A stretch of DNA of 64,000 nt from Escherichia coli O127:H6 str. E2348/69 (GTDB lineage Bacteria > Pseudomonadota > Gammaproteobacteria > Enterobacterales > Enterobacteriaceae): assembly GCF_000026545.1 (NCBI RefSeq), contig NC_011601.1, one strand, 5' to 3'. The position numbers are program-made. Positions 1-9,000 of the stretch are shown one piece after another. Position 1 is the stretch's first letter, and the number at the start of each line of letters is the position of its first letter.

Positions 1-3000
1 CACACGACAAGGACTGCTGGCAAACGCCGCTTTGGCTTTTTGATGCACTGGATATTGAGTTTGGATTCTGGCTGGATTCGGCAGCGAGCGACAAAAATGC
101 TCTGTGCGCTCACTGGCTAACTGAGGCTGACGACGCGCTAAATTCTGAGTGGGTAAGCCACGGTGCAATCTGGAATAACCCACCGTACAGCAATATCAGG
201 CCGTGGGTGGAAAAAGCCGCTGAGCAGTGTATACAACAACGACAGACGGTAGTGATGCTTGTGCCAGAGGATATGTCAGTCGGATGGTTCAGCAAGGCTC
301 TGGAGAGTGTCGACGAAGTTCGTATTATCACTGATGGACGGATTAATTTTGTCGAACCATCGACAGGACTGGAGAAGAAGGGAAACAGCAAAGGTTCCAT
401 GCTGCTGATTTGGCGACCGTTCATCAGTTCTCGACGGATGTTTACTACTGTATCCAAAGCGGCATTGATGGCGATCGGGCAGGGCGTCAGGAGGGCAGCA
501 TGAGACGACAGCGACGAAGTTTCACCGACATCATCTGCGAAAACTGCAAATACCTTCCAACGAAACGCTACAGAAATAAACGCAAGCCAATCCCAAAAGA
601 ATCTGACGTAAAAACCTTCAACTACACGGCTCACCTGTGGGATATCCGGTGGCTAAGACATTGTGCGAGGAAAACAAGGTGATTGACCAAAATCGAAGTT
701 ACGAACAAGAAAGCGTCGAGCGAGCTTTAACGTGCGCTAACTGCGGTCAGAAGCTGCATGTGCTGGAAGTTCACGTGTGTGAGCACTGTTGCGCAGAACT
801 TATGAGCGATCCGAATAGCTCAATGTACGAGGAAGAAGACGATGAATGAGTTAATAAATGGCAATGCCATAAAAATGACAAGCATTGAAATCGCTGAGTT
901 GGTTGGTAAGCGTCATGACAATGTGAAACGTACCATCGAAACGCTGGCTAAAAATGGTGTTATCCGGCTTCCTCAAATTGAGGATTGTGGAAGAATCAAT
1001 GGGTTAGGCTTAAATCAAAGTTTTTGTGTGTATGTATTCGAAGGCGAACAAGGAAAGCGAGACAGTATTGTCGTTGTAGCCCAGTTGTCGCCGGAATTCA
1101 CGGCTCGCCTTGTTGACCGTTGGCGAGAGCTTGAAGAAGCTGCGGTTAATATCCCAAAAACGCTACCAGAAGCGTTGCGCCTTGCTGCTGACCTTGCTGA
1201 GCAGAAAATGCAACTGGAAAACCAGCTAGCAATTGCCGCACCTAAAGTTGAGTTTGCCGATCGCGTTGGCGAGGCCAGCGGAATTTTGATTGGAAACTTT
1301 GCAAAGGTTGTTGGAATTGGTCCAAACAAACTGTTTGCGTGGATGCGCGATCACAAAATCCTTATTGCTTCAGGTTCCCGGCGCAATGTGCCAATGCAGG
1401 AATATATGGATCGCGGCTATTTCACAGTGAAAGAAACAGCGGTCAACACAAATCACGGAATACAGATATCGTTCACCACAAAAATCACCGGGTGTGGTCA
1501 ACAGTGGCTGACCAGAAAGCTGCTCGATAACGGAATGCTGAAAGTAACAGGGGAGGCTGCTTAATGGCTAACCTACGCAAAGAAGCTCGCGGCAGAGAAT
1601 GCCAGGTACGTATTTACGGCGTATGCAATGGCAACCCTGAAACTACAGTTCTGGCACATTACCGGATGGCTGGAATTTGCGGAACGGGAATGAAGCCTGA
1701 CGACCTGATCGGCGCATGGGCTTGTAGCGCGTGTCACGATGAAATCGACCGACGCACCCATAACCTCGACAACAAAGACGCCAGACTTTACCACCTCGAA
1801 GGCGTGATCAGGACGCAGGCGATACTGCTGAAGGAGGGGAAGATTAAGCCATGAACGAATATCAGTTTGTGCTTCCATACCCGCCGTCGGTGAATACCTA
1901 CTGGCGAAGACGGGGAGGCCAATACTACATCAGCGATAAAGGCCAGAAATACCGAAAAGACGTTCAGCAAATCATTCGCCAACTCAAGTTAGACATTTTC
2001 ACCAAATCACGACTCCGTATCAAAGTCATCGCAGACGTTCCAGACTCCCGCCGCCGCGACCTCGACAACATCCTGAAAGGTTTACTCGACTCCCTTATCC
2101 ACGCCGGATTTGCGGAAGACGACGAGCAATTCGATGACATTCGCGTAATTCGTGGTGTGAAAGTACCAGGCGGAAGGCTTGGAATAAAAATCACCGAACT
2201 GGAGAACACATGAACAAAGCATTCGAACGATATATGCGCCAGCGTTATGGCAATCGCTACGATCTTACCCGCGATGCTTACGGCTTCTACTGTCGTGAGG
2301 TTGTGAAACGAATGTTTGAAGTGTGGTGTCATTGCAAAGGATAGAGGGGAAGACGATGAGACTCGAAAGCGTAGCTAAATTTCATTCGCCAAAAAGCCCG
2401 ATGATGAGCGACTCACCACGGGCCACGGCTTCTGACTCTCTTTCCGGTACTGATGTGATGGCTGCTATGGGGATGGCGCAATCACAAGCCGGATTCGGAA
2501 TGGCTGCATTCTGCGGTAAGCACGAACTCAGCCAGAACGACAAACAAAAGGCTATCAACTATCTGATGCAATTTGCACACAAGGTATCGGGGAAATACCG
2601 TGGCGTGGCAAAGCTTGAAGGAAATACTAAGGCAAAGGTACTGCAAGTGCTCGCAACATTCGCTTATGCGGATTATTGCCGTAGTGCCGCGACGCCGGGC
2701 GCAAGATGCAGAGATTGCCACGGTACAGGCCGTGCGGTTGATATAGCCAAAACAGAGCAGTGGGGGATAGTTGCTGAGAAAGAGTGCGGAAGATGTAAAG
2801 GCGTCGGTTATTCAAGAATGCCAGCAAGCGCCGCATATCGCGCTGTGACGATGCTAATCCCAAACCTTACCCAACCCACCTGGTCACGCACTGTTAAGCC
2901 GCTGTATGACGCTCTGGTTGTGCAATGCCACAAGGAAGAGTCAATCGCAGACAACATTTTGAATGCGATCACACGTTAGCGCCATGATTGCCACGGATGG

Positions 3001-6000: not shown

Positions 6001-9000
6001 CGCAATGCCTGAAATAATTTTTTTGCAAATCACAAAGTCAATTTAATGAGCCTCGCGATGCGGGGCTTTTTTATGTCCGCAGTAAACGCGCATCTCACGC
6101 GCATATTAACGAGAGCCTTTCAGTAAGCGAGCCTGAGAAATGCCGTTATAGGTGGCGACCTCTCTCGGGCGGCTTTTCTGTGAGACAGGCTCACTTTCTA
6201 AAAGGTAAAGACGCTATGAATAATCATTCAGTTATTCCAGCCTTCGACTTCCGAGAAATGGTGCAAGCCAAAAACGGAGAGGTCGTTACCACATCCAGAA
6301 AAATTGCCAAGTACTTCGGCAAGCGACACGGTGATGTTCTCAGGAAAATCGAGCAGGTTAAGGCTGATTGCTCGCGTGAGTTTAGCCAACGCAATTTTGC
6401 GTCGGCTGATTATATCGATGAGCAGGGCAAGGTTCGCCCGATGTACAGCCTGACGAAAGATGGCTGGATCATGGTTGTGATGGGGTTCACCGGGAAAGCT
6501 GCTGCGGCAATCAAGGAGAGCTATATCGCAGCATTCAACTGGATGGCAGAGCAACTGAGCCGCCGCATGGCAATTGGCGAAGAAATGCAGCACCGCTACG
6601 CCATCAAAGAAACACGCTCAAAGCTGAAAGGTACGATCGGCAGTCGGTTAATGAACGAACGGAAGAAAGAGAAGCGTGTCCTGGCTGTCGAGCATGAATA
6701 CATTTTGCAGGTGACACAGCCTGAACTGCTGATTAATTGAAGATGTCATTACAAAGCCTATCTACGGGTGGGCTTGATAATGGCTTATACCCTGCACGGG
6801 ATAACTTAACTGATATCCCTTTTAACGGATAAAGGTATTCAAGCCTGACACATCATGCGCTGTATCGTCGCCGTATTCCCGCATTAACCATGATCGTAGC
6901 CCGACGGGGAATTCCTTCTGCGTGAGTGTGCGGGAATAATCAAAAACGATGCACACCGGGTTTTTACCGCGTTTATGATTCGTGGGTTTGTCCCTCATGC
7001 TCGCCAGTCCTGTGCGGGGGTGGAAGAAACAGGACGCTCACACAGATTCTTGTAGGTACGATGCTATTCCTTTCTGGATTATCCCGATGCCATTCATGCA
7101 GGGCGCTGTATCAGACGTTCGTCATGGCTGACGGGTCCTCCTGGTGGGGTGGCCTGCCACGGGGCGGGAGCGTCGCGGAAAAAGGCTAGTTTTTGAAATT
7201 TCATTCGTCATCACCACTGCTGTAATTGATTGATATTGCAGTAGTTTTATTTTTGCGGTGTCGATTTTGATTGTTTTTTGTTCATCACTAACACCGTTTG
7301 CCTAAAGTTGTTCGCAAGATGCATGTTTAAAACATTCTGGAGCGGGTATGGATCGAGAGTTAAAAAATCTGACGCTGAATATCAGTCAACTGGCGGCACT
7401 GTCAGGTGTACATCGCCAGACTGCTGCGGCAAGGCTGCAAAATCTACCCGTTGCAGGGGGGCATGAAAGCAACCTCAAGCTTTATCGGGTGGTTGATATT
7501 GTGTCGGCATTTCTGGCATTGCCACCGCCGGTTGCAGAAGGCGAAATGGACGCGCATGAGCGCAAAGCCTGGTATCAGTCTGAACGTGAGCGTCTTAAGT
7601 TCGAACAGGAAACGGCACAACTCATTCCGGCCAGTGATGTCAGACGGGAGTTTGCCATCTGGGCAAAAGCGGTCGTGCAGGTGCTGGAGACATTACCGGA
7701 TATTCTGGAACGTGACTGCGGTCTGCAGCCTGCCGCTGTGAGCCGTGTTCAGTCCATTATTGATGATCTGCGCGATCAGATAGCCCTGCGGGTGACTGAA
7801 GCAGGTGCGGATGATGAGGAGGAATTACAGCAGGAGGAGTAATGCTGAATCAGGAAACCGCAAAGGCAGCACGAACCGATTCAGGTTATATCCTTCGCGC
7901 ACCGAGACGAATGCGGGTTGCTGATGCCGTTGCTCAGTATATGCGGGTGCCCATGGGGGCCGGGAACTCAGTCCCGTGGGATCCGCTGGTGGCACCGTAT
8001 GTTATTGAGCCGATGAACTGCCTGGCCTCGCGTGAATACGACGCAGTGATATTTGTTGGCCCGGCACGAACTGGCAAGACTATCGGCCTGATTGACGGCT
8101 GGGTGATTTACAACGTGATTTGCGATCCTGCGGATATGCTGATCATTCAGATGACGGAGGAAAAAGCCCGCGAACACTCCAAAAAACGACTTGCCAGAAC
8201 GTTTCGCGTCAGCCCGGAAGTGGTCAGTCGCCTGAGTCCGAACAAAAATGACAACAACGTTTATGACAGAACATTCCTTGCTGGCAACTACCTGAAAATC
8301 GGCTGGCCGTCAGTCAATATCATGTCCTCATCAGATTATAAATGCGTGGCGCTGACGGATTATGACCGTTTTCCGGAAGATATTGATGGCGAGGGGGATG
8401 CCTTCTCTCTTGCCTCAAAACGTACCACCACATTTATGTCCAGTGGTATGACGCTGGTGGAGAGTTCCCCCGGCAGGGATGTGAAGGATGTGAAATGGCG
8501 ACGGACTTCACCGCATGAGGCTCCACCAACCACGGGGATACTGTCGCTCTATAACCGTGGCGATCGCCGTCGCTGGTACTGGCCCTGTCCACACTGTGGT
8601 GAGTATTTTCAGCCCTGCGGCGATGTGGTTGCTGGTTTCCGTGATATTGCCGATCCCGTGCTGGCAAGTGAGGCGGCTTATATTCAGTGTCCTTCCTGTT
8701 CAGGACGGATTATGCCTGAACAAAAACGTGAGCTGAACGGACGTGGGGTCTGGTTGCGGGATGGTGAATCCATCAATGCGGATGGCAGTCGTTATGGTGA
8801 TCCCCGACGCTCACGTATTGCGTCATTCTGGATGGAGGGTCCGGCAGCTGCTTACCAGACACTCTCGCAACTCGTTTACAAACTGCTTACTGCAGAACAG
8901 GAATACGAGACAACCGGAAGTGAAGAAACACTCAAGACGGTTATCAATACCGACTGGGGATTACCTTATCTTCCCCGTGCCAGCATGGAGCAACGAAAAA

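Follow-up and report, generated by a model that had tools for sequence, protein, structure and literature searches.

The question raised by this locus is why a single prophage should carry two genes of the Rha type, and whether the two together amount to a dedicated regulatory system. The window, by which we mean the whole 64-kb stretch of DNA that was analysed, corresponds to the right arm of a prophage of the lambdoid type in EPEC strain E2348/69, to which its sequence is 100% identical. The original prediction had placed a Rha/KilA-C antirepressor in the nin region and a second Rha-family protein in a moron-like position behind the lysis cassette, and had proposed that both were independently acquired. 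We conclude, with a probability of roughly 85%, that this is a standard lambdoid right arm with two different named members of the Bro network, and that their pairing is ordinary mosaicism and no special two-regulator system.

On the plus strand, the Q antiterminator, which drives late-operon read-through (2356-2979; Pfam Antiterm, 192 bits, and RefSeq), precedes a lysis cassette of P21-type holin, lysozyme and Rz (4841-6017; Pfam, the ORF list and RefSeq). This cassette is followed by rha, then by the DUF1441 small subunit (7348-7842) and the GpA-type large subunit (7842-9944) of terminase, both assigned by Pfam, an order that was read from Pfam and RefSeq together. An Rz1 reading frame, which carries no annotation, is embedded in the lysis cassette at 5770-5976, and the base composition of an AT-rich island at 2980-4800 does deviate from that of its neighbours. 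The terminase genes bear out the presumption of a cos/terminase region downstream of the second gene. The cos site itself would lie near 7323, a position read off the start of the mEp460 record, as the left end of that linear phage genome maps there; rha lies about 580 nt ahead of this inferred site and of the terminase genes. Hairpin and IHF scans find an AT-rich hairpin at 7216-7245 (strand not assigned) within the likely cos region, and inside the hairpin lies a perfect IHF consensus on the minus strand (7223-7235). The prophage repressor is a LexA-like S24 autocleaving protein, and a Bro-N gene is also present in the same prophage, between N and cI.

The first of the two genes, at 842-1564 on the plus strand, coincides exactly with RefSeq CDS WP_001003979.1, a 'phage antirepressor KilAC domain-containing protein', and is the already named lambdoid gene roi. 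Its product resembles HK022 Roi over the full length (88% identity), is 94.6% identical to Stx2 phage 86 Roi, matches PHROG 63 (2.7e-95), and contains an ANT/KilAC domain at residues 126-228 (Pfam, 111 bits). At both ends the gene overlaps its neighbours, with its start on the stop of ninF and its stop on the start of ybcO, and roi is therefore part of the nin operon, in the order ninF-roi-ybcO. The KilA-C assignment and the nin location were thus correctly foreseen, and the Rha assignment was foreseen for a domain that only narrowly qualifies; the original prediction did not identify the gene as roi, nor did it note how common such pairs are. Phage_pRha is matched at residues 12-99 with 33.5 bits (E 6.6e-8), against a Pfam PF09669 gathering cut-off of 29.9 bits, and NCBIfam TIGR02681 gives 17.3 bits, under its cut-off of 45.95 bits, which makes the Rha assignment of the N-terminal domain marginal; the domain would be a DNA-binding winged helix of Rha-like type.

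The second gene, at 6216-6740 on the plus strand, has the exact coordinates of RefSeq CDS WP_001059339.1, 'Rha family transcriptional regulator'. It is the already named lambdoid gene rha, an orthologue of phi80 rha, in the canonical phi80/P22 slot where the gene was defined. Its product matches Phage_pRha at residues 25-111 with 99.1 bits (Pfam, E 2e-28) and passes TIGR02681 with 113.8 against 45.95 bits; judged by these profiles, only the rha product would count as an unambiguous Rha-family member of the pair. It is 100% identical to phiv205-1 Rha, 73.4% to phi80 Rha over the full length, and 37% to P22 Rha. The C-terminal tail of 60 residues has no family match in Pfam, and the ORF11CD3 domain was not detected there even at E<=10. 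The Rha domain and the post-lysis place of this gene are both confirmed, the latter also by comparison with related phages: rha directly follows Rz/Rz1 in phi80, P22, phiv205-1, Gally and phiON-2011, and the same holds for 68 of 70 loci in viral contigs, although their Rz proteins range from 51 to 100% in identity and the terminases downstream differ.

Pairwise BLASTP finds no similarity between the two products, and the genes are therefore not duplicates of each other. Both proteins match the same part of PHROG 63 (positions about 122-239), which supports a common N-terminal domain in Roi and Rha; a PDB sequence search with the two proteins returned nothing usable for either. Among 5426 complete E. 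coli genomes, roi is present in 1106 and the E2348/69-type rha allele in 247, and of the 37 rha loci whose upstream DNA extends far enough, six also carry roi. On these counts, roi and rha appear to be distributed independently, as separate mosaic units, in agreement with the earlier claim of independently acquired modules. Pairs of roi and rha are common, and the pairing itself is already known. It is normal for a lambdoid prophage to have several regulators of the Bro network, and the presence of several such genes in one element has been described as usual (PMC10111431). The two genes are now correctly named, roi and rha, and the pairing as such matters little.

As for expression, roi, translationally coupled between ninF and ybcO, would be a delayed-early product of the pR transcript. 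Since rha has no recognisable promoter of its own, it would most likely be transcribed with the late operon from pR', with Q-modified polymerase passing the terminator at 6048-6068 without stopping, and translated from a structured leader at 6113-6215 whose basal helix would pair with the Shine-Dalgarno sequence. Both genes have a connection with IHF. A perfect IHF consensus, AATCAATGGGTTA, lies inside roi at 994-1006 (plus strand) and is followed by a site with one mismatch at 1013-1025; the consensus scan gave 4 matches in 64 kb against 2.4 expected. The consensus, a predicted site, begins at nt 153 of roi in HK022 and in Gally as well, and overlaps conserved codons. In HK022, an IHF site within the roi gene is said to adjoin the Roi binding site. 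According to the second-hand account in PMC4936722, Rha of phi80 and P22 and Roi of HK022 are known genetically to block phage growth in hosts lacking IHF; the phenotype also figures in the title of a 1996 paper by Clerget & Boccard, as quoted in PMC3430580. A paper on the IbfA abortive infection of UAB_Phi20 makes no mention of Rha. Roi and Rha would most likely bind specific DNA sites and in this way adjust phage replication or transcription.

The leader of rha (6113-6215, plus strand) is a homologue of the P22 small RNA P22F, with both sequence homology to it and a conserved secondary structure, as recognised by alignment, RNAalifold, covariation and a covariance model. Its basal helix (6116-6123/6198-6205) covers the Shine-Dalgarno AAGG, and the inner helices are nested at 6129-6135/6186-6192, 6136-6139/6176-6179, 6142-6145/6170-6173 and 6150-6152/6159-6161. 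In the leader alignment, 95% of the cells are paired, and seven pairs show double changes against 1.9 in shuffles (0/500). The covariance model matches the window once, at the leader itself (115.8 bits), and neither blastn nor the model finds a second copy in the 64 kb. Scanning 5900-7450 against Rfam at E<=1 found no convincing family, and neither IsrK nor C4 was matched. The sequence GGTGGCGACCT at 6151-6161, which makes up the tip of the leader hairpin, resembles lambda cos, and was rejected as cos because phi80 has an identical copy before rha while its cos lies 1.85 kb further on. Likewise, the GTG at 6180, annotated as the rha start in phi80 and phiv205-1, was rejected because the leader heads unrelated genes and the CUS-3 frame meets a stop codon before the ATG; the conserved start of rha is predicted to be the ATG at 6216.

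Leaders of this kind are found in phages of E. coli, Salmonella, Klebsiella, Enterobacter, Hafnia and Pantoea, and in Citrobacter by sequence match only. The genes behind them are interchangeable types of the Bro network (rha alleles, kilA-N, ant and T5orf172), and also AlpA and HNH-AP2; in phiON-2011, the same post-lysis leader heads a P22_AR_N 'ant' gene. In Stx2a phages, the leader is 87% identical and Rha just 43.5%, making the leader more conserved than the coding sequence. Whatever the gene, a few nucleotides separate the end of the leader from an ATG with an AAGG Shine-Dalgarno sequence in 69 of 69 leader-positive loci, a scoring that itself required the ATG and AAGG features; eight exact-pattern matches in viral contigs without a covariance-model match were taken as chance. 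P22F is an 89-nt RNA over the homologous P22 leader, found by RNA-seq and RT-PCR and reported only for P22 (PMC13397905). The conservation of a P22F-like leader across genera and its linkage to interchangeable genes emerge from the present analysis. We tentatively propose, at somewhat less than even odds, that the leader is a cis-regulatory RNA acting as a portable 'cassette head' for interchangeable accessory genes in the late operons of lambdoid phages from at least six enterobacterial genera. Masking of the Shine-Dalgarno sequence would keep translation low until the leader is opened or processed, and the element would either travel with the genes or serve as a platform for recombination and translation control. 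The conserved leader marks a gene-exchange hot spot after the lysis cassette, and, matching a P22 small RNA, offers a testable handle on how potentially harmful late-operon DNA-binding proteins are restrained.

The main product of 6113-6215 might instead be a stand-alone, trans-acting small RNA, the homologue of P22F, with the rha reading frame secondary. The RNA detected over the P22 leader, the covariation behind the structure, and a leader that outlasts its coding sequence in the Stx2a phages would all suit such a molecule. In the leader-positive loci, however, the element always stands just before AAGG and ATG, as is usual for a cis-acting 5' UTR or for a processing fragment that is stable. 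It is not known to have a target, and the leader shows no promoter signal; we hold this reading to be improbable. A different proposal, also unlikely in our view, concerns the proteins: Roi and/or Rha would be true antirepressors of CI-type repressors, of their own or of co-resident prophages, and would provide two independent inputs for induction or cross-talk. P22 Ant and the Gifsy antirepressors bind and inactivate CI-type repressors. Roi does have a KilAC/ANT domain, PHROG and other databases use names such as 'anti-repressor Ant' that many homologues bear, and the 'ant' gene of phiON-2011 sits behind the same leader; these names, however, are inherited annotations, HK022 Roi is annotated 'DNA-binding protein Roi', and Pfam finds neither of the repressor-binding domains, P22_AR_N and AntA, in Roi or Rha. 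Moreover, a LexA-like autocleaving repressor needs no antirepressor for SOS induction, and a late-operon gene would be expressed after the lysis decision has already been made.

The remaining alternative takes up the suggested moron-like position of rha, with an upstream hairpin belonging to the gene. Here rha would be an autonomous, recently inserted moron whose own promoter keeps it active in the repressed prophage to the benefit of the host, for example by excluding superinfecting phages. The post-lysis slot is indeed polymorphic for presence and absence, as kilA-N, hypothetical or other genes occupy it in the related phages mEpX1, HK75 and Stx2-1717, and a terminator does stand upstream of rha. 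This is an intrinsic-terminator-like hairpin, GAGCCTCGC-GAT-GCGGGGCTT, with a 9-bp stem (6048-6068) and then a T-run (6048-6074 in all, plus strand), and a terminator is annotated at the same place in phi80 and HK75. Under a strict pattern it is kept in 73 of 77 rha loci; of the four exceptions, three have a hairpin that is off by one base or is a variant, and the fourth has none. It is found in phages without rha too, however, and is predicted to be the terminator closing the lysis cassette, not one belonging to rha. A simple consensus scan, which is blind to weak or activator-dependent promoters, finds no sigma-70-like promoter on the plus strand of 6017-6216. Upstream of the leader lies a direct repeat, ACGCGCAT-N3-ACGCGCAT (6086-6104, plus strand, 11-bp spacing), which falls in conserved alignment columns; this GCGCAT repeat could be an activator site, and a weak or activator-dependent promoter may lie in its region. 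Against autonomy, the scan of 6741-7215 finds no terminator after rha, the GC content of 0.48-0.50 across 6000-6750 is that of the flanks, and rha keeps its slot across phi80, P22 and many mosaics. The moron reading is not supported, and we consider an autonomous cassette very unlikely.

Two named genes in a standard right arm remain the preferred reading, and both have close counterparts in known phages. In HK022, as in HK97, HK620 and Stx phages, roi occupies the same nin-region place after ninF, and HK022 Roi has the same architecture of a Rha-like N-domain and a KilAC C-domain; its C-terminal half is reportedly related to P1 Ant/KilA. The two Roi proteins differ at residues about 22-62, the presumed recognition region, and the DNA specificity of E2348/69 Roi may therefore differ from that of HK022 Roi. 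In phi80 and P22 (where the gene is rha/ORF201), rha stands in the same slot, after Rz/Rz1 and a terminator and before cos, and the 198-nt Rz-rha spacer of phi80 is 100% identical to that of the E2348/69 prophage. The packaging module downstream differs, being DUF1441 and GpA terminase in E2348/69, and the ORF11CD3 C-domain present in Rha of the P22 type is not detectable in E2348/69 Rha. Window positions 6125-6210 align to the 89-nt sequence of P22F, with the same nested hairpin and compensatory changes. The cultured phage Gally shares the overall arrangement of the prophage: ninF-roi-DUF1364-rusA, then ninH as an extra gene, Q-S-R-Rz, a further small ORF, and rha. Roi and Rha are both built from domains of the Bro network (Phage_pRha, ANT/KilAC, KilA-N, Bro-N, P22_AR_N, ORF11CD3 and T5orf172), in which domain swapping, including that of Phage_pRha, ANT, KilA-N and ORF11CD3, has been described (PMC10111431).

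Two genes of the same general kind are indeed present in this prophage, and the original prediction is partly right in how it interpreted them; as written, the finding is already known throughout (roi, rha and the Bro network of domain-shuffled phage DNA-binding proteins). The sole element that deserves further attention is a P22F-like structured leader in front of the second gene. Window positions 600-7900 match the chromosome of enteropathogenic E. coli strain E2348/69 (O127:H6) at 100% identity and belong to a lambdoid prophage whose integration site adjoins torS. Its left arm lies outside the window, with the order int-xis...N-(Bro-N gene)-cI-cro-cII-O-P-ren-nin.

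The first gene, 842-1564 (+), is found where it was predicted, and is the RefSeq CDS 'phage antirepressor KilAC domain-containing protein'. The product is identified as Roi: across all 240 residues it shares 88% identity with the HK022 roi product, and it is 94.6% identical to a Stx2 phage 86 protein that carries the annotation 'DNA-binding protein Roi'. It had been assigned to the Rha family, and this holds only at the margin. Domain search gives Phage_pRha at 33.5 bits (cut-off 29.9) and ANT/KilAC at 111 bits, and the same PHROG 63 segment is matched by both proteins, making a shared N-terminal domain credible; the NCBIfam model TIGR02681, on the other side, scores 17.3 bits, below its 45.95 cut-off. 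The gene follows ninF, as in HK620, HK97 and Stx phages, a position also given in PMC3430580. At both ends it overlaps the adjacent genes, which makes it an integral part of the nin operon. Among alleles, codons 22-62 (905-1025) are highly variable, with 32-62% nucleotide identity to HK022, and the rest is nearly identical at the protein level, which suggests a specificity segment swapped inside the Roi N-terminal domain (residues ~22-62).

The second gene, 6216-6740 (+), is the RefSeq CDS 'Rha family transcriptional regulator', and here the family assignment is firm: Phage_pRha scores 99.1 bits and TIGR02681 113.8 bits against the cut-off of 45.95, which only this one of the two proteins passes. 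The product is recognized as Rha from its identity to the Rha of phi80 (73.4%, full length), P22 (37%) and phage phiv205-1 (100%, 'Rha protein'). ATG 6216 is the conserved start, and unrelated genes begin at the aligned ATG; GTG 6180 was ruled out on this ground, and by a stop codon that closes its frame in CUS-3. The surroundings are as originally described and domain searches agree: Q, a P21-type holin, lysozyme and Rz precede rha, and the genes after it encode a small terminase (DUF1441) and a large terminase of GpA type. Within Rz, in the +1 frame, a 68-aa ORF at 5770-5976 (+), where RefSeq annotates no gene, has a signal resembling that of a lipoprotein (..VVGC) as well as a proline-rich segment, and looks like an Rz1 o-spanin. 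Comparison with related phages bears out the post-lysis slot: rha lies directly 3' of Rz/Rz1 and 5' of the packaging genes in phi80, P22, phiv205-1, Gally and Stx2a phage phiON-2011, and of 80 viral contigs carrying this rha, 70 extend far enough upstream to show the preceding gene, which in 68 is an Rz homologue. This order persists even though the Rz homologues vary in identity from 51 to 100% and the terminases are not the same. The slot is therefore the canonical position of rha.

The proposal that rha is a moron with its own upstream hairpin does not hold. The hairpin at 6048-6068 is a good intrinsic-terminator-like structure, but it lies in the first 54-104 nt past Rz that are shared with the rha-less phages HK75, HK446, mEpX1/2 and Stx2-1717, where a kilA-N or hypothetical gene fills the slot, and the phi80 and HK75 records annotate it as a terminator; it is thus the closing element of the lysis cassette. 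Consensus scans gave neither a + strand promoter between Rz and rha nor a terminator after rha, GC content around the gene is unremarkable, and presence/absence polymorphism is the only moron-defining feature that rha displays. In the most economical reading, Q-modified polymerase would read through the 6048-6068 terminator and transcribe rha with the late operon, in agreement with its description as a late-operon gene in PMC4936722. Moron features are far better fitted by the Q-holin interval 2980-4800, an AT-rich island (GC 0.33-0.44) equivalent to the pR'-proximal slot that stx occupies in Stx phages. Within it lie an ORF for a 252-aa membrane protein (3217-3975; PHROG 1521, a group without assigned function), a gene of the DUF3927 family (4061-4219) and, on the minus strand, another ORF (4300-4698). 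In the stretch from the Rz terminator to the leader, the direct repeat ACGCGCAT-N3-ACGCGCAT (6086-6104, 11-bp spacing) could be a protein-binding site; its GCGCA(T/C) repeats are kept in phi80, P22, Stx phages and others.

Roi and Rha are most likely site-specific DNA-binding proteins. By the second-hand account in PMC4936722, rha is regulated by IHF, and the Rha proteins of phi80 and P22 prevent phage growth in hosts defective in IHF; a title quoted in PMC3430580 says of HK022 Roi that it 'inhibits phage lytic growth in E. coli integration host factor mutants'. The phi80 record remarks 'DNA synthesis inhibition in IHF- hosts'. A perfect IHF consensus, one of four in the 64-kb window, lies within roi at 994-1006, and keeps its exact position in the roi genes of HK022 and Gally despite variation in the codons around it; it fits the roi study, which reportedly placed an IHF site beside the Roi binding site within roi. 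A one-mismatch IHF site overlaps rha codons 3-7. Action as antirepressors, the term in the RefSeq name of the first gene, is less probable, since the repressor of this prophage is autocleaving and LexA-like and domain search gives a P22_AR_N or AntA domain in neither Roi nor Rha.

The suggestion of independently acquired modules is upheld: pairwise similarity between Roi and Rha is not detectable, so they are not duplicates, but independent mosaic modules. Of 5426 complete E. coli genomes, 1106 have roi and 247 have this rha allele; where 6 kb or more of sequence is available upstream of rha (37 loci), full-length roi is found at 6. The gene order recurs in cultured phage Gally (ninF, roi, DUF1364, rusA, ninH, Q, holin, lysozyme, Rz, small ORF, rha), and Sp5-like Stx2a phages appear to carry roi with a diverged rha, judging from matches in different near-identical records rather than one genome. 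A third gene of this kind, encoding a 280-aa Bro-N family protein, lies between N and cI of the same prophage, ~4.3 kb left of the window (14849-15691 (-) of sequence L090); it stands where lambda has rexAB, and the lysogen may express it. A prophage with two such genes is not unusual, and the Bro network, which swaps Phage_pRha, ANT/KilAC, KilA-N, Bro-N, P22_AR_N and ORF11CD3 domains, is abundant in phages and satellites (PMC10111431).

Downstream of rha, a long non-coding spacer of 607 nt (6741-7347) reaches the small terminase gene and is kept at 88-96% in a few phages (vB_EcoS-569R4, PhiR40_1); its 58-aa minus-strand ORF (6822-6998) matched no family. The left end of the linear mEp460 genome is equivalent to 7323; if the record starts at the cohesive end, cos probably lies ~25 nt upstream of the small terminase gene. 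A perfect IHF consensus at 7223-7235 (-) is overlapped by an AT-rich hairpin (7216-7245). The lambda-cos-like GGTGGCGACCT at 6151-6161 was rejected as cos, and falls within the leader.

The leader, the rha-proximal spacer at 6113-6215, is conserved better than rha itself: in Stx2a phages it retains 87% identity, against only 43.5% for their Rha, and it is recognisable in the P22 spacer. Seventeen aligned leaders, from phages of E. coli, Salmonella, Klebsiella, Enterobacter, Hafnia and Pantoea, give a single nested hairpin fold with 95% of cells paired. In seven pairs both partners have changed; shuffled alignments give 1.9 such pairs (none of 500 reaches 7) and slid controls only 1-3. The basal helix, 6116-6123/6198-6205, covers the AAGG Shine-Dalgarno sequence and is almost invariant, so that covariation is no test of it. 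The leader is also present in the compared sequences L002 (4992-5080), L085 (10534-10642), L089 (2597-2704) and L087 (2601-2711). Searched with a covariance model made from 12 distinct leaders, the window has one copy only. Elsewhere the model places the leader exactly before kilA-N genes in Stx2-1717 and mEpX1, before a P22_AR_N-ORF11CD3 'ant' gene inside the phiON-2011 lysis cassette, and before gene 66 of phi80. Scanned for the exact pattern, viral contigs gave at least 80 loci, at least 69 with a full leader ending at an ATG. Among the matches listed, a sample biased by the pattern and by that listing, the gene behind the leader is Rha-type at no fewer than 39 loci, KilA-N at 14 or more, T5orf172/MUG113 at 7 or more, AlpA, an unknown N-domain with KilAC, and HNH_3 with AP2 at one or more each, and other or unknown at 6 or more. 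All leaders of unusual genes are backed by the covariance model at 80-118 bits.

The element appears to serve accessory genes of the late operon as a portable 5' leader. Rfam holds no family matching it, and as far as could be found, neither its breadth nor its apparent role at the head of an exchangeable cassette has been described before. The leader is not wholly new, since its P22 copy is identical to the 89-nt small RNA 'P22F', reported with 'no known function', which was recently detected in P22-infected Salmonella and ends 6 nt before the rha start codon (PMC13397905).
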